From a virus, in IMG/VR virus record IMGVR_UViG_3300045988_104111, positions 1 through 64,000 of that record: a DNA stretch of 64,000 nt. The stretch is one strand, 5' to 3'. The notes beneath the pieces are model-generated. The model ran no database searches, was not told the DNA's origin, and was given only the letters and a program-made list of their open reading frames with translations. Positions 4,116 through 46,821 of this stretch are shown here, piece by piece (position 1 is the stretch's first letter; each line of letters opens with the position of its first letter). The translations under genes were made by a program, and so were the position numbers.

Positions 4116-5605
4116 TAGAAAGCGGTGATATATTGAACGATAATTTTAATATTTTAAAAACTATGCAAACTGTTGCTAAGACAACACAAAGCAAACTTGA
4201 TTATGATAAGACATATAGAGGATATGTTATATCACAAAACAGTAACGGAAAATATAAAATAAAAATAAATGGGCACATATATGAAAATGTAGACAATCCT
4301 AGTGGGCATACAATATCAAGCGGCGATGTTGTTAGAGTTACCTTCCCACAAAACAATGCGTCTCAATGCTATATTTGTATGGCTTCACAAAGAGATGGGG
4401 TTACACCAACTGTAAAAAGTGTAAACGGTAAAACAGGCGACGTTGTATTAACTCAAGACGATGTTCCAAATGGTAACACTTACGTAAGAACACACAATGA
4501 CTTTACTACAGAAGATAAAGGAGCGATATCAAAAAACGCTCAAGATATTACATCTTTGCAGCAGTCTAAACAAGATAATATAACTGGTGGCGCATCCAGT
4601 ATAACAAGTGTTAACTTGGGTGCAAATAAGGCACTTGTGTCTAACGCATCTGGTAAAGTTGCTACAAGCAACGTGACTAGTACAGAATTAAGTTATTTAT
4701 CTGGCGTTACAAGTAACATTCAAGAGCAGATAGACGCAAAAGTGCCAACGTCTGTATTACCAAGTGACGATTTACCAAAAGCCAATAGCGGAAGTGGCAA
4801 TGCTGGGAAATCTGAAAAATATTCCAGAGGAGACCATGTACATCCAACAGACAATTCTAAATTAGATAAAAATGGTGGAGAGGCAAGCAATTTACTAATT
4901 ATTGATAGTTACACTATGGTTGACCAAAACGGTAATAAGGTTGATGTTAGCCAAATAGACGGCACAATCAAATTTGCTTCAAGCGGTAGCGATCCTAATG
5001 TTGTATTGAAATATGTCGGAGATCCAGTAGATGAATATGACGCGGTTAATTTAAAAACGTTGGGAACAATAGCCGATGAAATCAATACTACTGCACAAGA
5101 CGCTCTAGTTGCGGCACAAGATGCGCAATCAAATGCCAGTTCAGCATTAACGGAAGCGCAAAGCAAAGCCCCGACGAATCATGCCAGCACGGTGACGACC
5201 TACGGCAAGGGCACATTGACGAACTACGGGCACGTCAAGCTCTCGGACTCCATCCTCAGTACCTCCGGCACCGACGGCGGCACTGCCGCGACACCCTATG
5301 CCGTAAAGCTGGCATACGACCTAGCAAACAGAGCCGAAACGAAGCTGCTTGGCGGCAAGAAAATCGTCTGCGGCTGGGATAATGTAGGATATAAAAGCAC
5401 GGGACAGACAAACACCACTATTTCCTTTGGTACGAAGTTTACGGCAAAGCCTACGGTGATAATCGGCCAGCCGTTCAATGGCGCCGTCTGCACGGCTTTT
5501 TATGATTCGGTCACTACAACTGGTTTTACAGTTAATGTTCCTTCGGTTGGCGGCACAACATTAGCATATCGTAAAATGGCTTGGATCGCCATTGGGGATG
5601 TATAA
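4094..5605 (+). CDS. tail fibre-like protein with a compositionally foreign C-terminal tip
   Basis: Fibre-type motifs: HVHPTDNSKLDKNGG, DAVNLKTL, YGHVKLSDS...AATPYAVKLAYD. Sharp rise in G+C from about 5160. Confidence 0.6.
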   Translation: MPSLIYFIESGDILNDNFNILKTMQTVAKTTQSKLDYDKTYRGYVISQNSNGKYKIKINGHIYENVDNPSGHTISSGDVVRVTFPQNNASQCYICMASQRDGVTPTVKSVNGKTGDVVLTQDDVPNGNTYVRTHNDFTTEDKGAISKNAQDITSLQQSKQDNITGGASSITSVNLGANKALVSNASGKVATSNVTSTELSYLSGVTSNIQEQIDAKVPTSVLPSDDLPKANSGSGNAGKSEKYSRGDHVHPTDNSKLDKNGGEASNLLIIDSYTMVDQNGNKVDVSQIDGTIKFASSGSDPNVVLKYVGDPVDEYDAVNLKTLGTIADEINTTAQDALVAAQDAQSNASSALTEAQSKAPTNHASTVTTYGKGTLTNYGHVKLSDSILSTSGTDGGTAATPYAVKLAYDLANRAETKLLGGKKIVCGWDNVGYKSTGQTNTTISFGTKFTAKPTVIIGQPFNGAVCTAFYDSVTTTGFTVNVPSVGGTTLAYRKMAWIAIGDV

Positions 5606-17538: not shown

Positions 17539-20031
17539 TTACTCACATTTTGTCCAAGCGCAGTTGGGACACGAAACACAACCTCCAATATGCACTAGCG
17601 GTTCGCCGCATTCCGGGCATAACTGCTGTTGCATATTTACCTTGCTAATTGGTTCAACAGGGATTTTCTTAACCGGCTTTTCTTCATTGTCTTTACTATC
17701 ATCATCCAGTTCTGATTGCATCTCATTATACATATCTACAAGAGCATTACCAATAGCCATTGGACAACAAGAACCCTTGCTAGTATCGTGGTGGGTTGCC
17801 TTTCTAGTAGCATAAGACGGGCATACACCAGTTGAATCTAGTTGGTCTTTGATGGTCATAATATCTACACCAGCACGGCATAGTAGGCTGACCGTTCGGC
17901 TTAGACCAACCATGAAATTGGCGCAATTTCCTGTAATAAAAATTTTTCCGTTGCGACGTAGGATAAGTAAACCACTGGGTACAGTAAAACAATAAGATTT
18001 TCCATCTAGTGGTTTATAATCTTCAATAGTTGCCGTTGATAGACCATGTACGTTTTGAGTTGTCCAACGAACTCTGTAGCTATCATGTTCTGTTTTTGTT
18101 CCATTGTTTAGAGAAATTGTAGCTCTAAACCCAAGCCGTGTTAATGCAAATTGGATGAAATCAGCTTCTACTTTTTTTGATGTAAAATAAGAACCAAGAC
18201 GATTTCCTTCGCCAACAGAACCATCCCAATACACACATTCGTCTACAATACATTTCAATTGATCGTCATTGCAATCATACCATTTTGGTGTGAATTGTTT
18301 ATCTACAAACCATTGTTTGGCGCTTGGTGTAGGATGAATATAAAACACTGTATATTCGGTATTGTGAATGTTCTTTTCAGTCCATCCAATGTCACAATTA
18401 GTTAAAAGATGGCGAAGACGAATTTTTTTGCGTTCTTTCTTTACATCAACAACGATTTTATGCCCATCAAATGTACCATCTGCGTAAATTGCAACGAGCA
18501 ATCTAATTAAATTATTGTCAAGAGGAATGCCATTCGTGTTCATAGAAAATGTAGTTGGCACATGACGATTTCTAGAGCCGAGCAAGAAATCTTTTACAGT
18601 AATAATTTCAGTAGACAACTTACTTCTAATGCCAGACATATACTTAATATAATTTTTATATAAGTACATTCTATGATCTTCGGAAAGAACCATATCTAAA
18701 CCAGTTGTGTTATGAAAATGTTTCAAATTTTCAATATTGTCGTTTACGATGTATGAGATTGGATATGTTAAAGACGCTGTTCCATCTTCGTTGTACTGTA
18801 GCACTTGCTCATATTCATCCGCATTGTATTCACTAATCTTTTTCCATTCTACGCCATTGAAATATTCTGTGTCTTTATCTACACACCCGCCAGCTGAGCC
18901 TTTGTTGAAATATACCTCTTGTAGATTGCCGTCAATTGGGTCAAAGAACGCAAGAACATGAAGTGAACCGCATCCTGTCTGGATTTTGCGCTTCTTGCCA
19001 ATTAGGTCATTGCTTGGTTCGATAATTGAACCACGAGGGAGAGTGAGAGATGGGTGTTCAGGCTTAGATTCGTCATCTTTCTTATTTTCAGTAAGCAAAA
19101 TGCCCTGACGAATTGCATTTGGTCTGAAAATGGTACATCCCTTAATACCCTTCTTCCAGCATTGCATATAAATATCCTTGACTTCATCAAATGATGCTTC
19201 AGTAGGCACATTGATGGTCTTGCTAACGCTCATGTCAGTATATTTGCTAATAATAGCAAGCATAGCTACATGGTCATCAACAGACATATTAAGTGCAGTT
19301 GGGAAAATATCATGCTCGTCAAAATCAAGCTGCTTGCCCTCATCTTTTAGTTTATGATATAGATAATAAGCATAATCCATCATTTTGACGATTTTTACAT
19401 CCTTATCGTCTTGTCCACCAATTTTTACCTTGCGGTCATAGCTAAGAGAGAAAATTGGCTCGATACCACTTGAGCAGTTATTACCAAATACCATAGAGAT
19501 TGTGCCGCATGGTGCAACCGCCTGAATCTTAGCATTACGAATACCATATTCAGACATTGCGGCAATTACATCATGTTCTAGCACAGATTCGACATATGCG
19601 CCATCTACGTGCTTGTCTAACTCACATAGAGGGAAACACCCTTTTTCTTTAGCAAGCTGAACAGACGCATAATATTCCGCATTGGTAATCATTTTCATTA
19701 GAGATTCAATATAATCTCTTGCTTCTTGGCTATCATACTTCACACCAAGCATAGCGAGCATATCTGCTAAACCAGTGATACCGATACCAATGGTGCGCAT
19801 ACCCTTCTGATAATTTTCGTAAATCTTGTCAGGGAATTTATTTACATCAATAATATCATCAAGCATACGGACGGCAATGGAGATTGTATTTCTTAGAGCA
19901 TCGGTATCAAGATGCGCCTGCTTAGTAAATGGATTCTTTACAAAATTGTGTAGGAACAATGAGCCAAGATTACAAGCGCCGCCATATTGAGATGGATCTG
20001 TTGTATTGATTGTTCCTGCTAGATATTCTGC
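17539..20031 (-). CDS. nrdJ: class II (B12-dependent) ribonucleotide reductase, 3' exon (contains an intein)
   Basis: AEYLAG..CNLGS continues the NPC motif of exon 1. C-terminal CPECG...CVSCPNC zinc ribbon. The track start GTG 20034 has no SD. Confidence 0.85.
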   Translation of the reverse strand, partial: AEYLAGTINTTDPSQYGGACNLGSLFLHNFVKNPFTKQAHLDTDALRNTISIAVRMLDDIIDVNKFPDKIYENYQKGMRTIGIGITGLADMLAMLGVKYDSQEARDYIESLMKMITNAEYYASVQLAKEKGCFPLCELDKHVDGAYVESVLEHDVIAAMSEYGIRNAKIQAVAPCGTISMVFGNNCSSGIEPIFSLSYDRKVKIGGQDDKDVKIVKMMDYAYYLYHKLKDEGKQLDFDEHDIFPTALNMSVDDHVAMLAIISKYTDMSVSKTINVPTEASFDEVKDIYMQCWKKGIKGCTIFRPNAIRQGILLTENKKDDESKPEHPSLTLPRGSIIEPSNDLIGKKRKIQTGCGSLHVLAFFDPIDGNLQEVYFNKGSAGGCVDKDTEYFNGVEWKKISEYNADEYEQVLQYNEDGTASLTYPISYIVNDNIENLKHFHNTTGLDMVLSEDHRMYLYKNYIKYMSGIRSKLSTEIITVKDFLLGSRNRHVPTTFSMNTNGIPLDNNLIRLLVAIYADGTFDGHKIVVDVKKERKKIRLRHLLTNCDIGWTEKNIHNTEYTVFYIHPTPSAKQWFVDKQFTPKWYDCNDDQLKCIVDECVYWDGSVGEGNRLGSYFTSKKVEADFIQFALTRLGFRATISLNNGTKTEHDSYRVRWTTQNVHGLSTATIEDYKPLDGKSYCFTVPSGLLILRRNGKIFITGNCANFMVGLSRTVSLLCRAGVDIMTIKDQLDSTGVCPSYATRKATHHDTSKGSCCPMAIGNALVDMYNEMQSELDDDSKDNEEKPVKKIPVEPISKVNMQQQLCPECGEPLVHIGGCVSCPNCAWTKCE
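17926..18885 (-). mobile_element. intein (320 codons) with a LAGLIDADG-type endonuclease domain in nrdJ
   Basis: GG|CVDKDTEYF ... FITGN|CANF (Cys1, terminal Asn, +1 Cys). Internal LLVAIYADG and DFIQFALTRLGF blocks. Confidence 0.8.
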
Positions 20032-20933
20032 CACACATATTTAATGTGCTAGACTATATCTTATCCCTCATCTTTACATGTTAGGGCAATCGCACTGCGT
20101 AAATTTATTTGGAGTTGCCAGTTTTCATTACTCATCCATACAGGTTGATATTCGTAGCCGAGATATAGCTTATACATCATACTATCAACAATATATGGTT
20201 TAACCAAATTGATAAACGTTTCATAACTAGACTGCTGAATGCGCAAACGTCTGAATTTATCTCTTTTGATAATTGAACAATCCAAATTAAATTTGTCTTT
20301 GAGCATTTTGCTCATTGCTTCAACTGTTTTAAGAGAATATCTGTCTGTGCAAATATCAATGCGTCTTGATCTAATATTTCCTGTTGTTTTACCAACAAGA
20401 CAAACGTATCCATCACTCATATACCAGTTAGCAAGCCCATTTGGAGTTAGCCAACTTAATGCTTCTTTAGATGCTACTCTATGCTTGTAATCATCGTAAA
20501 AATGATGATATTTCTTAGCGAAGTACGGATGGGCTTTAATATATAATTCCCAATTATCTTTATAATTACATCCATTTGCCCATTTGCCTTGATGGAAATT
20601 TACAACAATATCAAAATTAGAACAAGATTCCAAATCAGATTTAATCTTATAGATAAAATCTTTGTTGATGCTGCTCATTCTTATAGCACGCTTAGTTACA
20701 CCATTATCAATTCTTGCATCCCCAAAAATAAGTCCTGTTAAATATCCTTTTAACTCTGAACTATTCATACAATTATAGCCTCCTATAATTTCGTATAATA
20801 TTAAATTTACATTAGTCGTTGAACCTTCCAACCTATTGTTGACTTGGCTGCTGATCGGCTTTCGCTTTCCAGCAATTCACGATTGATTATTTTCATTAGA
20901 TTTCTCTAAAGCCCTGCACTTTTATCTAGGCTT
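20032..20933 (-). mobile_element. group I intron (902 nt) splitting nrdJ at the NPC|AE active-site motif
   Basis: Exon end CCCUGU pairs with intron GCAGGG (20917-20912), giving U.G at the splice site. The intron ends in G before GCA. It carries a LAGLIDADG ORF. Confidence 0.7.
20061..20768 (-). CDS. intron-encoded double-motif LAGLIDADG homing endonuclease
   Basis: ATG at 20768 after TAGGAGG. Motifs LTGLIFGDARI and LANWYMSDGYV. Confidence 0.8.
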   Translation of the reverse strand: MNSSELKGYLTGLIFGDARIDNGVTKRAIRMSSINKDFIYKIKSDLESCSNFDIVVNFHQGKWANGCNYKDNWELYIKAHPYFAKKYHHFYDDYKHRVASKEALSWLTPNGLANWYMSDGYVCLVGKTTGNIRSRRIDICTDRYSLKTVEAMSKMLKDKFNLDCSIIKRDKFRRLRIQQSSYETFINLVKPYIVDSMMYKLYLGYEYQPVWMSNENWQLQINLRSAIALTCKDEG

Positions 20934-21755
20934 ACAGGGATTACTACAAACAATTCTTTCTACATACCATGCTGGATTGCGATTATTGGCATTATCCTCA
21001 TAGAATACGCCCGGTTCACCATTATCATATGCCATTTGCATGATTTCATTCCAAATATCACGAGCTGACACTAGCTGAGTAAATTTCTTATCCCACTTAG
21101 ATGACGGTAGCTTATTACCCTTCTCGTCATAGATGGGCCAATGCAACCGAATTTGACCATTAGAAATAACACTTCGCATAAAAGCATCATCTACAACAAC
21201 AGACAGATTGAAATGATTGAGGCGTCCTTCTGTAGCTGACTTGGCATGGATAAATTCAAGAATATCAGGATGATATACACTGAGCATACCCATGTTTGCG
21301 CCGCGCCGTGAGCCTTGCTGCACTGTAGCTGTCTGAGCATTGAATACATCCATGAAGCTAACCGGTCCAGATGCAATAGCGTCATTACGGGTTCTATATC
21401 CATTAGGAGCTAGATTGCTGAAAGCATATCCAATGCCGCCACCAGCTTTATGTGTCATAGCACCGAGTTTAACAGCATCAAAAATTTGCTCCATACTGTT
21501 ACCAACAATGGGCGCGACAAAGCAGTTATTGAGCGTTAACTTTTCGCCAATACCAGCGTTGCTCATGGTGCGTCCAGCTGGGAAGAAATAGCCCGATGCC
21601 ATAATATTGTAGAATTTATCTGCCCATGTGCTTGAATTATTATCTTCAGCCGTAGCAATAAAATCAGCTACACGCCATAGCTGGTCATCATATGACTCGC
21701 CGTTCTTTTGGTATCTATCTTTCCAAATAGATTTATATACCTCATTTACAAACAA
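20934..21755 (-). CDS. nrdJ: class II ribonucleotide reductase, 5' exon
   Basis: TTG start after AAAGGAGGA. Motifs FPAGRTMSNAG, NNCFV, KAGGGIGYAFS, SGPVSFM, RRGANMG, HPDILEFI, ending ...CSNPC. Confidence 0.85.
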
Positions 21756-22178: not shown

Positions 22179-25100
22179 TCACGATTCTGCTGATTTGTCA
22201 AGTAGCATTTCACATAATTCAGTATTTCTTTCCTTTTCCTCTTGTACTCTCAATCCCTCTTGAATAGCTACCTCATCTCCAATCAATATTAGCCGCTCTT
22301 GTGCGCGTGATACGGCTGTATAGCACAAATTACGACTTAGCATCCTTACATGGCTTCTATCAATTACCACAATTACGGCTTTAGCTTGACAACCCTGTGA
22401 TGAATGCGTAGAAATTGCATATGCTAATAGTGTATTCTTGATATGAGACTTATCAACTATACAATTACCGCAATCATATCGCACAATCATATATGGCTCT
22501 TTTTCATCTGGTACAATTTCCATTACTGTGCCAATATCGCCATTTGCTACAAAAGCCGTATCATCATCAGCAAGCGGCATAGCATATTCATTCTTTTTAT
22601 TGATGACCTTATCTCCCACTTTGAAATAGATAGGCACATTATTGACTGTATGCCCAACCGTGCTTAATTCATTTGGATTGAATTTGGATTGAATTGCCGC
22701 ATTGATAGCCAATGAGCCAACTTCACCCTTATTAAATGGAGATAGAATCAGCACATCATCCTTACTATATCCATCTGTCAATAGCCGCGCATATTCTTGT
22801 TCAATTTGATTGATTACTAATGTATCAGTTTCAATGAACTTATAATCTGTGAAAGTATCTGTCAGATGGTCATTTACTCCATTTCGTACATCAGTAGCTA
22901 TGGTAATAATGCCAGACGTGTTATATCTGAATACCTTAGTCAAGTTACATACAGGCATAATGTTGCTATCAAGCATATCTTCAACAATGTTGCCACAAGC
23001 GATAGATGCAAGCTGAGATGGGTCGGCTATGAAGATTATTTTGGTACGGTCTGTTACCTTATCAAATAGCATTGATAGCAAATGGACACTAATTTGACTG
23101 GATTCATCTATGATTAGATAGTCGCCTAAATTCTCACTCATTGTTAGGAACATATGGATAGTAGACGCTTCTTTTTGTGTTGCTTCTCGTAATTTTTTGC
23201 TAGATATTCCTGTCGGGGCAAGTAGAGTATATGTATATCCATTGTCATCTAGCATATTGACAAGTGCTTGCATACTTGTCGTTTTACCACAGTTGCCAGT
23301 AATGAAAATACAATCTTTTCGTCTTAGTACGAGCATATGCGATGGTACTGTAAAGCAATATTTATATCCATCCGTTGTTGGTACTTGAGTTATGGGCGTT
23401 TTAGTACATTTACTTCTATTATCTGAACACAATCCTACTTTTGTTCTGTTAGAAAAATTCACAACATATAAATTAGTTTTTCTGCTATATTCTTTATTAT
23501 TTACAATGTGAGTTTCACCAATTCGATTAGAAATGCTTATGGATGCTCTAATTCCTACAGATGCAGTAGCGTATTGAATAAAATCTGCATCAGATTTAAT
23601 AGCCGATGAATAAGATTGATATTTTGTATTATTTTTTGTATATCTTATACATCCATCCCAATAAACAACTTCATCTATGATTATCTTTAGTTGGTCATTA
23701 GAACACCCATACCAATACTCTGTAAATTGCTTTTCTCTCCTTGGCACATAAACGTAATAGTCAGTATATCCTTTTTCTGTACTCTCATGTGCTTTATATT
23801 CAAGTCCATTTTTATTGAAAAGATAAACTAATCTATCTTTCTTACGTTGCTTTTTTATATGAAAGGTACATCTCGTGCTATTTTTATTACCGGCGTTGAA
23901 ATGCCCATCTGCCAAAACCGCGCACATTAGACGAATTTGCCATTCATTTAAGTCTATACCAGAACCGCCAAAATTAAATGTTGTGAGAAACCTCCCTTGG
24001 AAATTCTTAGTTGACGGAAGGTGCATTTGTTTTAGTTGTTCAATATTACATTCTTTTAATACACCGTCTCTTGTTTCATATATAATTCTATGATCGTCAC
24101 AGACAGTTTGATTTAATCCTCGGAGCGTTTCAAAGTGCCACAGTGCATCACATGGCTTCTTGATATAAGCAATAGGACTTACAAGCTCTGCTGTTCCATC
24201 CTCGTTGTACTGAAGCACCATATCACCGTCTTGATAATCAGCAATTCGCTTCCAACCAGTGCCAGTAAAAAACTCAGTATCACAATCAACACAACCAGCC
24301 GAGCCGGTCAGCATCATCACATCCTGCTTACAAGCCATCTCAAGAATTTGCGCTTGTTCATTTGTTAGCTCTAAGCCGTCTACCCTTGTAAACTTCTGCC
24401 AATCCATAGGATAATAATGTGGATTGGTTATTTTTTTCTTGATAACATCAGCAATATGCTGTTCGGCGCTATATGTGGCTTGTAGGGCTGTATTCTGACT
24501 AGGCGGGTCATAGTGTACTTGCGCCGATTTCGTCACAACATCGAGGAGATGATGAACACATTGAGGCGTTTTCTTCTTGACCATATCAAATAGCTGTTTG
24601 GCTTGCATCTTTGTATTGCCGTCCAACTCATTATGCTTCAGAGCATAGATAGTAGCCGCCTCACATCGTTCATAGCTATCTAGCCATTTTGCCGTTTTCT
24701 TGGTTATTGCTCTATCAGCTCTATCAAACGACCATTCAAGCAAGTTAATCATAACAGCGTATGGATTGGCGTTTATATCCTTGCTAAATTCATATACATT
24801 CTTATATGTTGCGGCGATTTTGTTTATATCCTCATCATGCTCAATGCACCAAGAATATGTTTCGCCCATAAATTTAACACGCTTGTTGATCGTCTTGATT
24901 TTTGCAATATATCTTGGCAATAGCACCTTGCCTACGCCTTTAATTTTTTTGTAGTCCAGATTGTCGGCTTCGCCATTCAGTACCATACTGACAAAATGAG
25001 GATATACGGCATGACATGATTCAGCTTGCCCATTGGTCATTAAGCTGCGTAGCGTCTGTAATTCGGCTTTTTCTGTTAGATTGAATTTGCCATCTTTAGC

Positions 25101-25346
25101 TACAAATCCAGCAAAACCAATGAATTTATAGCTATATTTATATTTATCATCCTCACATGGCTCAATGATACAATCAATAGACTGCCCCATTTTCAAGTCG
25201 GCAATCCCAGTTCCTTTTAGGCTGATTGTGCCATATTGAGGATGACGTTCTATTGAGTCATCCTTAGTGCGACATGATATAATTGAGAAATTGGATTCAG
25301 GATTATTGAATATCATGCGCATTGGGATTATTTTTACTGTTTGCAT
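22179..25346 (-). CDS. RecD-like SF1 DNA helicase (contains an intein in Walker A)
   Basis: After intein removal Walker A reads GSAG-CGKTT. Also LIIDESSQ (Walker B) and AISTHSSQGCQA (motif VI-like). ATG 25346 follows AGGTG. Confidence 0.8.
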   Translation of the reverse strand: MQTVKIIPMRMIFNNPESNFSIISCRTKDDSIERHPQYGTISLKGTGIADLKMGQSIDCIIEPCEDDKYKYSYKFIGFAGFVAKDGKFNLTEKAELQTLRSLMTNGQAESCHAVYPHFVSMVLNGEADNLDYKKIKGVGKVLLPRYIAKIKTINKRVKFMGETYSWCIEHDEDINKIAATYKNVYEFSKDINANPYAVMINLLEWSFDRADRAITKKTAKWLDSYERCEAATIYALKHNELDGNTKMQAKQLFDMVKKKTPQCVHHLLDVVTKSAQVHYDPPSQNTALQATYSAEQHIADVIKKKITNPHYYPMDWQKFTRVDGLELTNEQAQILEMACKQDVMMLTGSAGCVDCDTEFFTGTGWKRIADYQDGDMVLQYNEDGTAELVSPIAYIKKPCDALWHFETLRGLNQTVCDDHRIIYETRDGVLKECNIEQLKQMHLPSTKNFQGRFLTTFNFGGSGIDLNEWQIRLMCAVLADGHFNAGNKNSTRCTFHIKKQRKKDRLVYLFNKNGLEYKAHESTEKGYTDYYVYVPRREKQFTEYWYGCSNDQLKIIIDEVVYWDGCIRYTKNNTKYQSYSSAIKSDADFIQYATASVGIRASISISNRIGETHIVNNKEYSRKTNLYVVNFSNRTKVGLCSDNRSKCTKTPITQVPTTDGYKYCFTVPSHMLVLRRKDCIFITGNCGKTTSMQALVNMLDDNGYTYTLLAPTGISSKKLREATQKEASTIHMFLTMSENLGDYLIIDESSQISVHLLSMLFDKVTDRTKIIFIADPSQLASIACGNIVEDMLDSNIMPVCNLTKVFRYNTSGIITIATDVRNGVNDHLTDTFTDYKFIETDTLVINQIEQEYARLLTDGYSKDDVLILSPFNKGEVGSLAINAAIQSKFNPNELSTVGHTVNNVPIYFKVGDKVINKKNEYAMPLADDDTAFVANGDIGTVMEIVPDEKEPYMIVRYDCGNCIVDKSHIKNTLLAYAISTHSSQGCQAKAVIVVIDRSHVRMLSRNLCYTAVSRAQERLILIGDEVAIQEGLRVQEEKERNTELCEMLLDKSAES
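23292..24293 (-). mobile_element. intein (334 codons) with a LAGLIDADG-type domain inside the helicase P-loop
   Basis: GSAG|CVDCDTEFF ... FITGN|CGKTT. LMCAVLADG and DFIQYATASVGI blocks. Clearly paralogous to the nrdJ intein. Confidence 0.8.
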
Positions 25347-26059
25347 GGAATACACCTATACAATTTTTCTGTTTTATCGGTACGACTTGATTTATCCAGT
25401 GTGCATTTCAACTTACCTTCCCAGATACATTCAAATCCATCGTCTGGCATCCAATATTCACTAATCAGAACAATATTGGTTTTAGCCATTTTTTTACACC
25501 AAGCATAGAATTTATCATAGTCAAAATCGCTTGTTGCATATTTTGTTGTATCGCGGTATGGAGGGTCACAATAAATGACCATATGATCCACATCCAATTT
25601 CCAGAAATCGCCACATACAAAAAATATTCCTTTTAACTTGGGGGCTTGTTTCTTGATATTTCTGATAGCCTCGTTAGTAATATCTCTTGGCGTTACGCCA
25701 TCTGCTTTGAAACCTCTCGGATAGCCACCAAACCATTTTGCGCCGAATGTACAGAATCCTACAAGTCCAACATACCAATTTGGATAATTGGATGGATTCG
25801 TTCTTACGGCATTATATTCTTCCTCTGTGATAGTATCGGGCAAACCATCTGTTGTCTCTGATACATGGTTTAGCAATGCAATCAGATATTTATGAACATC
25901 ATTGCCAATCTTACATGGGCATTTAATTTTATCAATCATATTAGCACCGCCAACAAACGGCTCTAAATAGCCACGACAATTAGGCATATTATCAATATAT
26001 GATTGGATAATAGGTGCAATTTGCTTACTCAAGCGGTTCTTGCTTCCAACATATTTCAT
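25334..26059 (-). CDS. Dam-like N6-adenine DNA methyltransferase (orphan)
   Basis: N-terminal KYVGSKNRL and the catalytic DPPY (YCDPPYRD). Confidence 0.8.
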   Translation of the reverse strand: MKYVGSKNRLSKQIAPIIQSYIDNMPNCRGYLEPFVGGANMIDKIKCPCKIGNDVHKYLIALLNHVSETTDGLPDTITEEEYNAVRTNPSNYPNWYVGLVGFCTFGAKWFGGYPRGFKADGVTPRDITNEAIRNIKKQAPKLKGIFFVCGDFWKLDVDHMVIYCDPPYRDTTKYATSDFDYDKFYAWCKKMAKTNIVLISEYWMPDDGFECIWEGKLKCTLDKSSRTDKTEKLYRCIPCKQ

Positions 26060-46726: not shown

Positions 46727-46821
46727 TGGTACTCCCGCTCCGACTCGAACGGAGATCGTGCAGCAATCTACTACCTTATGCCGGGTATAAACCGGTTGTC
46801 CTACCATTGAACGACGGGAGC
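46727..46821 (-). tRNA. tRNA gene. Anticodon UAU by manual fold (Ile, AUA codons). CCA is encoded. The variable region is unusually long (25 nt).
   Basis: 7-bp acceptor stem (G1.U72), U8, A14, GG18-19. D stem GUUC/GGAC. Anticodon arm CCGG-UUUAUAC-CCGG. T arm CUCCG-UUCGAGU-CGGAG, then A-CCA. Confidence 0.6.

Follow-up and report, generated by a model that had tools for sequence, protein, structure and literature searches.

A phage class II ribonucleotide reductase gene interrupted by a group I intron and a predicted intein

The window analyzed here, 64,000 nucleotides (nt) of viral DNA corresponding to positions 1 to 64,000 of IMG/VR record IMGVR_UViG_3300045988_104111, carries between positions 17539 and 21755 what its sequence identifies as an intact class II (adenosylcobalamin-dependent) ribonucleotide reductase (RNR) gene, nrdJ, whose reading frame is broken twice. 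Our analyses strongly favor the interpretation that this phage gene was invaded independently by a group I intron and by an intein, and that both would be spliced out, the first from the RNA and the second from the protein. This interpretation is carried by the anatomy of the gene, the exact junctions of the two inserts, the existence of empty alleles, the covariation of the RNA helices and the predicted protein fold, from which we infer RNA splicing, protein splicing and the activities of two endonucleases. The match of coordinates, junctions and empty alleles is far beyond chance.

The interrupted gene and its empty alleles

The exons and the intein were delimited by direct reading of the minus strand of window positions 17539-21755, on which all elements of the gene lie. 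Exon 1 (20934-21755) starts with a TTG at 21755 preceded by AGGAGG and encodes the N-terminal alpha domain plus the first 212 positions of the RNR barrel profile (Pfam Ribonuc_red_lgN, and Ribonuc_red_lgC positions 2-212). It ends with ...ERIVCSNPC, the thiyl-radical Cys motif, its final codons being AAT CCC TGT (TGT at 20936-20934). Unspliced read-through continues with AAG CCT AGA TAA, that is, with a stop after three codons. Exon 2 (17539-20031) resumes with GCA GAA TAT (AEY) at 20031 and contains two extein parts. The N-extein part (18886-20031, AEYLAG...KGSAGG) matches Pfam Ribonuc_red_lgC positions 225-522; the C-extein part (17539-17925) opens with the +1 Cys (TGC 17925-17923) and comprises the remainder of the Pfam TSCPD domain, a C-terminal CxxC...CxxC tail and the stop codon (17541-17539).

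Joining 21755-20934, 20031-18886 and 17925-17539 yields a protein of 784 amino acids (aa). The predicted ligated-exon junction reads ...AATCCCTGT|GCAGAATAT... and restores in silico the radical-Cys motif CSNPC|AEY. This joined, intein-free product aligns without a single gap with P0001, an uninterrupted RNR of 784 aa (772/784 identities), which reads CSNPCSEYLAG and KGSAGGCANF across the two junctions. It also aligns as one piece, over 99-100% of its length, with uninterrupted class II RNRs of isolated phages (31-36% identity, tblastn), and a large protein collection contains at least 120 uninterrupted homologues of 779-814 aa, with 86-98% identity among the matches listed. TIGR02504 (NrdJ_Z; cut-off 400) gives P0001, whose identity with the joined product is 98%, a score of 535 bits, and the enzyme is therefore class II. 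A preliminary description of the locus, made from the sequence, had placed the end of exon 1 and the resumption of the frame at these same nucleotides, including the stop three codons into the insert; it had also predicted the class II identity, the restoration of NPC|AE and KGSAGG-CANFMVGLSR upon removal of the inserts and a mature protein of roughly 784 aa, all of which agree with the joined frame and with P0001.

Two related contigs, L001 and L002 (encoding P0001 and P0003), carry the RNR gene without either insert in the same gene order as the window: helicase, 126-aa open reading frame (ORF), RNR, 53-aa ORF and aminotransferase. In blastn comparisons of the window with these contigs, homology ends at 20934 and restarts at 20031-20028, then breaks again at 18884 and is back at 17925. 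Given this synteny and the position of the breaks at the predicted junctions, which coincide with the boundaries previously proposed, both inserts are precise insertions relative to the empty alleles. The inserts also have a guanine plus cytosine content of 33-34%, as compared with 41% for the RNR exons.

The distribution of the two elements among alleles shows that they move separately. Contigs L051 and L068 (IMG/VR 3300045988_070622 and 3300045988_072875) have a homologous intron at NPC|AE and no intein. The intein is missing, with exact junctions, from L051 and L068 as well as from L001, L002 and P0001, including alleles that are 98% identical. Since L051 and L068 carry the intron alone, L001 and L002 neither element and the window both, the two elements have been gained or lost independently, and this set of empty, intron-only and doubly occupied alleles makes their independent movement visible. 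All six intron-bearing alleles, diverged hosts included, read AAT CCC TGT | GCA GAA around the intron site; the two empty ones read CCA TGT | TCT and CCA TGC | GCT. The uniformity of the occupied sites fits selection for P1 pairing, co-conversion during homing, or both.

The group I intron and its endonuclease

The first insert is a 902-nt group I intron (20032-20933) of type IA, located directly after the catalytic Cys codon. Its P1 helix (20912-20939) pairs the exon sequence CCCUGU (20939-20934) with the internal guide GCAGGG (20917-20912, intron nt 17-22) over 6 bp, and closes with a U.G pair at the 5' splice site. This pairing, correctly located in the preliminary description, is invariant in the six intron-bearing alleles. 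Rfam, covariation and RNAfold together delineate a core in two halves. The 5' core (20803-20911) consists of P2 (20911-20894), the 5' strand of P3 (20884-20878), P4 (20874-20869 with 20854-20849), P5 (20866-20857), P6 and P6a (20848-20823), the 5' strand of P7, GACUA (20817-20813), and the 5' strand of P7.1, UGUAAAUUU (20811-20803). The 3' core (20032-20106) consists of the 3' strands of P7.1, AAAUUUACG (20106-20098), and P3 (20094-20088), P8 (20086-20065), J8/7 (20064-20057), the 3' strand of P7, UAGUC (20056-20052), and P9 (20048-20034). In P7 (GACUA/UAGUC), a G-C pair adjoins an unpaired C, the predicted guanosine-binding site. The assignment to subgroup IA relies on P7.1, a 9-bp helix between P7 and P3' that closes the loop containing the ORF and that marks IA introns by the classification features listed in PMC3984707. 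The last intron nucleotide is the G at 20032, immediately before GCA as had been described; the Rfam alignment stops at G 20034, and 20032 is retained as the terminal G because it is the one of the two that preserves the reading frame.

Several lines of evidence support this core. In E-value mode, applied to a 1.2-kb region, the Rfam model RF00028 matches 20943-20780, covering P1 to P7 (41.5 bits, E 6.8e-9), and 20211-20034, covering P8, the J8/7 sequence AAGAUAUAGUC and P9 (18.8 bits, E 0.04). Unconstrained RNAfold of the window mini-intron independently recovers P2, P3, P4, P5, P6, P6a, P7.1, P8 and P9 (z = -1.97). Searching IMG/VR with the J6/7-P7 16-mer GGTTCAACGACTAATG and the P1 pattern CCCTGTAANC...GTGCAGGG, we found homologous introns at NPC|AE in five more contigs (L055, L032, L051, L068 and L071; 74-96% identity), and in L094 a 5' fragment comprising the 5' half only. 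The P1 pattern matched 30 viral-contig loci in all, and its matches other than the five homologues and L094, the one member that it added, were rejected as chance. From the six intron cores (window plus five contigs, ORF removed) we built an alignment on which we drew by hand a structure with P1, P2, P3, P4, P5, P6, P6a, P7 pseudoknotted with P3, P7.1 and P8. Among its 58 pairs (348 cells), 98% are standard pairs. Both sides have changed in 13 pairs (three each in P2, P3, P6a and P8, one in P5), against 0-2 in slid controls, and none of 500 shuffles reaches 13. P7 is invariant and therefore uninformative for covariation. The group I core with its P3/P7 pseudoknot, the absence of which had been named among the refuting findings, is thus present.

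The intron harbors a LAGLIDADG homing endonuclease gene (20061-20768, 235 aa) that matches Pfam LAGLIDADG_2 (PF03161; E 4.5e-26) and has the acidic residues in both motifs, LIFGDA and YMSDG. A Shine-Dalgarno sequence, AGGAGG, lies at 20784-20779, with ATG 20768 located 10 nt downstream of its end, and on these signals the most likely start is this ATG and not the upstream TTG; the two-motif ORF noticed previously is accordingly retained with a corrected start. The ORF occupies the P7.1 loop, its last codons crossing P7.1', P3' and P8 and its stop lying inside J8/7. One compensatory change that distinguishes alleles in P8, from CAU/AUG to CGU/ACG, is silent with respect to the endonuclease ORF that overlaps this helix.

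Related introns occur elsewhere. The 16-mer GGTTCAACGACTAATG is common to at least 80 IMG/VR viral contigs, and in most of them a group I core can be recognized by eye. It is shared by ORF-less group I introns that score above the Rfam gathering threshold: two in L019, about 125 nt apart (4251-4455 and 4580-4771, minus strand; 84 and 66 bits), and one in L066 (8156-8377, plus strand; 54 bits). A search of the window for further introns with two core motifs found only the one in nrdJ.

The intein and its family

The second insert (17926-18885), which begins and ends exactly where the preliminary description had placed its 320-codon intein, encodes 320 aa comprising a predicted splicing domain of the HINT type and an endonuclease domain of the LAGLIDADG type. 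It sits between KGSAGG and CANF, just ahead of the conserved TSCPD Cys, and is bounded by Cys1 (TGT) and N320 (AAT), followed by the +1 Cys (TGC). Its residues include S68-E-D-H71 (the block B T/S-x-x-H motif), R72, M73, D136, D221, C299 (F:4), P303...G305 and the terminal T318-G319-N320. An AlphaFold2 model built on an alignment of 72 relatives has a mean predicted local distance difference test value of 93.3 and a predicted template modeling (TM) score of 0.91. Its best Foldseek matches in the PDB are the full-length LAGLIDADG inteins TliVMA (7qsu, E 5e-14), PI-SceI, PhoVMA and PI-PfuI (TM-scores of 0.64-0.69 on the query, E 5e-14 to 5e-10), and I-DmoI matches its middle domain. The predicted fold is that of a HINT domain combined with a LAGLIDADG domain, whose motif residues D136 and D221 are conserved in 97-98% of the family; LAGLIDADG-like blocks had been noted earlier in the sequence.

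The 72 intein relatives retrieved by homology search (23-78% identity) mostly lie inside unrelated host proteins: DnaC/IstB-type and other P-loop proteins (G-x-x-G | G-K-S/T), guanylate kinase, terminase, RtcB (DIG|CGM), metallophosphatase, PhoH, superfamily 1 (SF1) helicase and DNA methyltransferase. Such a spread of a homologous insert over unrelated hosts is typical of inteins. We then searched 1.84 billion cluster representatives with a profile of 20 trimmed family members. Tightening the cut-off from E<=1e-3 to E<=1e-10 and then to E<=1e-30 lowered the number of matched proteins from 17,120 to 12,192 and 2,751, and proteins caught via the LAGLIDADG domain alone are probably among the weaker matches. 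Residue conservation was assessed on 206 full-length domains from 199 proteins. His B:10, Cys F:4, Asn G:7 and a Ser, Thr or Cys at B:7 are present in all 206. Cys1 is found in 203, Thr G:5 in 194, Gly G:6 in 198, and the Asp residues of LAGLIDADG motifs 1 and 2 in 199 and 201, respectively. The +1 residue is Cys in 115, Ser in 79 and Thr in 11; the one protein with none of these ends at the intein. At B:12, where the window intein has Met73, the family uses V, I, F, M or L, and W does not occur. Precomputed Pfam annotation shows an intein domain in none of the 72 relatives; since no standard intein model detects the family, such inteins would go unannotated wherever phage annotation relies on those models. 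For nrdJ itself, gene callers will split or mis-size the gene, and the intein will escape standard domain searches.

A second intein of the same family lies in the window at 23292-24293 (minus strand), within a RecD2-like SF1 helicase ORF (22179-25355). It is 334 aa long, 36% identical to the RNR intein, and splits the P-loop (GSAG|CVDCDTEFF...IFITGN|CGKTT); the helicase of L001 and L002 (721 aa) lacks it. Several proteins, P0242, P0193 and P0222 among them, have two or three separate matches to the family profile and appear to carry multiple family inteins.

By sequence, the family profile matches one solved structure, 6ZGQ (AceL NrdHF; E 5.7e-11), along the N-terminal half including block B; this link comes from the full family profile only, a search with the profile of the C-terminal half having found nothing. 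AceL NrdHF is a naturally split intein from a phage-like RNR locus, assigned to class 3 by mutagenesis, in which C124 (F:4) is essential and the characteristic triplet is MCT (M70, C124 and T144) and not WCT; it has S65, H68 and R69 in block B and a P128-G129 kink, and has His neither at F:13 nor at the penultimate position (G145), where the mutation G145H inactivates it (PMC7891396). Class 3 is defined operationally by the lack of a nucleophile at position 1 together with a Cys at F:4 (PMC7891396, PMC2807308), and mechanistically by an N-terminal nucleophile that is 'not required' (PMC5222942). Judged by its residues, the window intein is not class 3 by the operational definition, since Cys1 is present. 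Of the class 3 marks, it has Cys F:4 and Thr G:5 and not Trp B:12, replaced by Met as in AceL NrdHF. Because Cys1 is retained and Cys is the second commonest F:4 residue across inteins in general (PMC4031507), the default expectation is class 1 splicing, which would proceed through Cys1.

A more tentative possibility, to which we give clearly less than even chances, is that the RNR intein, its helicase paralogue and thousands of phage relatives are Cys1-retaining members of the class 3 lineage of the AceL-NrdHF (MCT) type. C299 is kept more strictly than Cys1 (206/206 and 203/206 domains). If this were true, the inteins of the family would splice via the block-F C299 as branch-point nucleophile, or could fall back on it, and the family would connect class 1 with class 3 protein splicing in evolution. 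With AceL-like catalytic residues and Cys1 nevertheless kept, it offers a test case for the origin of class 3, and it may be a source of splicing tools, AceL NrdHF being a fast and clean splicer. Three members have other residues at position 1, Pro in P0174 and P0264 (GPFG|PLS.DTE...ITGN|SGKS) and Gly in P0314, with Cys F:4 and TGN kept; on these residues they would count as class 3 by the operational definition, unless they are degenerate copies.

Splicing, its alternatives and known systems

In the mechanism that we propose, the pre-mRNA would fold into a P1-P9 core with the intron directly after the catalytic Cys codon (NPC|AE). Exogenous guanosine would attack after the U of the P1 U.G pair, the terminal G 20032 would set the 3' splice site, and exon ligation would restore the frame; without splicing, translation would end three codons into the intron. 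The intron endonuclease, for the translation of which the P7.1 loop has a separate ribosome-binding site, would presumably cut intron-less alleles, driving homing. The ligated mRNA would be translated into a 1104-aa precursor with the 320-aa intein at KGSAGG|C, and the intein would excise itself, joining the exteins into the 784-aa enzyme and releasing a free LAGLIDADG endonuclease. The idea, already put forward in the preliminary description, that this gene needs both RNA and protein splicing is thus supported at the sequence level by the two RF00028 halves, the covariation, the predicted HINT fold and the empty alleles.

Some observations weigh against this proposal. On the RNA side, Rfam at its gathering threshold (50 bits for RF00028) gives no intron match at the locus and no single hit of at least 50 bits; the Rfam check suggested earlier thus recovers the intron as two partial matches, neither of which reaches 50 bits because an ORF of about 700 nt splits the core. 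The homologous introns of L055, L032, L051, L068 and L071 likewise fall under the gathering threshold. The covariation comes from six related sequences, and the structure was derived from these same sequences. A canonical P10 of 5 bp exists in L068 and L071, where UCUGU adjoining the guide sequence pairs with GCAGA of exon 2, and is reduced to 2 bp in the window subgroup. Intron nt 5-11, CUAGAUA (P1 loop, 20923-20929), are fully complementary to exon 2 positions +7 to +13, UAUCUAG (20019-20025), a possible substitute for P10 that could align the 3' exon in another way.

On the protein side, the window intein lacks the F:13 His and the penultimate His (block G:6), the latter being replaced by Gly319, and the check with intein hidden Markov models (HMMs) proposed earlier failed, as no intein or Hint model of Pfam or NCBIfam matches it at E up to 10. 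The only Pfam match is a weak one to LAGLIDADG_3 (E 0.005), and the only NCBIfam match is a single unrelated motif at chance level (E 0.57). A phmmer search of the PDB with the intein sequence gave no match, and neither a HINT-only mini construct nor C-terminal profile searches retrieved an intein. By analogy with AceL NrdHF, Gly in place of the penultimate His is a known, tolerated variation.

Among the alternatives, the one that survives best, improbable as we consider it, is that of a decaying gene in which splicing of the intron, of the intein or of both has been lost, the phage uses the host RNR and the inserts are scars of past invasions. The two missing His residues of the intein and the weak P10 of the window allele would agree with it, and degeneration of phage RNR genes after invasion has been reported, for instance in the nrdA of a Campylobacter phage (PMC3653736). 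However, the exons match an intact allele at 98% identity and are free of stops or frameshifts, all catalytic positions of the intein are conserved, and both endonuclease ORFs are intact with their acidic LAGLIDADG residues kept. Compensatory changes maintain the ribozyme helices across alleles, which implies purifying selection on ribozyme structure, and AceL NrdHF, with the same Gly-Asn terminus, splices efficiently (PMC7891396).

Even less probable is that the 320 inserted aa form a domain unable to splice, or an intein-like one capable of cleavage only, as the absence of any intein HMM match and the atypical C-terminal motif TGN might suggest. A C, S or T residue follows all but one of the 206 domains, whereas cleavage-only domains lack such a residue, and the inserts of the family split P-loops (G-x-x-G | G-K-T/S) and catalytic motifs that could not tolerate 320 additional aa. 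The predicted HINT fold and the match of the family profile to an intein that splices experimentally, AceL NrdHF, also argue for splicing. Expression in pieces, in which the exons would be translated separately, exon 2 from the in-frame GTG at 20034-20032, and assemble non-covalently like NrdA of Aeromonas phage Aeh1 (a split functional phage RNR has precedent; PMC3045599), has least in its favor, since this GTG has no preceding Shine-Dalgarno sequence and falls within the P9 stem and terminal-G region, the break directly follows the radical Cys within the active-site loop, and the intervening sequence is a conserved, covarying ribozyme and not a free-standing endonuclease gene.

Other products encoded in the window are a tape-measure protein, DnaB, RecJ and a polymerase of the DnaE type, the closest relative of which is that of Clostridioides phage pCD1602_4 (49%). 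The phage is an uncultivated tailed one, probably of Firmicutes. The related contigs, of 80-97 kb, are metagenomic, and a megablast search with the locus found no match, and hence no annotated close relative, among 50,697 phage records. A crAss-like origin, considered for the richness of crAss-like phages in introns and inteins (PMC7886860), was rejected because of the tape-measure protein and of the DnaE-type polymerase, closest to those of Clostridioides and Bacillus phages. A tRNA-Ile gene with anticodon TAT occupies 46727-46821 (minus strand, 95 nt; Rfam 45.8 bits, also detected by ARAGORN). Some 22 extra nt separate its anticodon stem from the T arm, which is either a small insertion or a variable region of unusual length for tRNA-Ile.

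Among the nucleotide-metabolism genes of phages, RNR is described as the one that group I introns interrupt most often (PMC3653736), and the intron-plus-intein combination is not new and has clear precedents. The nrdE gene of the Bacillus subtilis phage SPbeta (SPbetac2) contains a group I intron together with an intein (Lazarevic et al. 1998, as summarized in PMC3653736), and that of Brochothrix phage A9 three introns and one intein (PMC3653736), so that the phenomenon has been established in phage RNR since 1998. As in the window nrdJ, both RNA and protein splicing are needed in a single RNR large-subunit gene and the homing elements occupy conserved sites. By contrast, the SPbeta and A9 genes encode class Ib NrdE and not class II NrdJ, the insertion sites and the element families differ, and in the window the intron encodes a LAGLIDADG endonuclease, while the intein is a member of the TGN / Cys-F:4 family. 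What is new here is therefore the class of the host gene (NrdJ), the insertion sites and the particular families of elements.

The intron itself resembles those of T4 td, nrdB and nrdD (sunY) and of Twort nrdE (group IA) in its compact core, its location at a highly conserved codon of a nucleotide-metabolism gene, and its endonuclease ORF looped out from a peripheral helix and partly overlapping the core. It differs from them in the P7.1-loop location and the LAGLIDADG type of its ORF, and in its site directly after the class II thiyl-radical Cys codon; phage introns more often carry GIY-YIG, HNH, PD-(D/E)xK or EDxHD enzymes (PMC3984707). For the intein, the closest characterized system is AceL NrdHF (PDB 6ZGQ; Hoffmann et al. 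2020, PMC7891396), the C-terminal half of which was compared through the residues reported in PMC7891396. The two share Ser B:7, His B:10, Arg B:11, Met B:12, Cys F:4, the Pro/Gly kink after F:4, Thr G:5, Gly G:6 and Asn G:7, the lack of both the F:13 and the penultimate His, and a phage RNR context. AceL NrdHF, however, is a 146-aa mini-intein with Ala1 and Ser+1, split by a GIY-YIG gene and located in a class Ib beta subunit, whereas the window intein has Cys1 and Cys+1, is contiguous, contains a LAGLIDADG domain and resides in NrdJ.

The class 1 inteins with solved structures, PI-SceI, PI-PfuI and Tli/Pho VMA, share the two-domain architecture of the window intein with an identity of only 9-14%. 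They have the canonical His-Asn C-terminus. Outside phages, the RNR gene of Trichodesmium erythraeum is reportedly interrupted by four inteins as well as by three group II introns (Liu et al. 2003). It is a class II gene and is comparable to the window nrdJ in combining introns and inteins within an RNR gene, although it is a cellular gene and its introns belong to group II. Alongside these systems, the window nrdJ adds a further clear case in which one essential phage gene, a class II RNR, has accumulated two selfish splicing elements.

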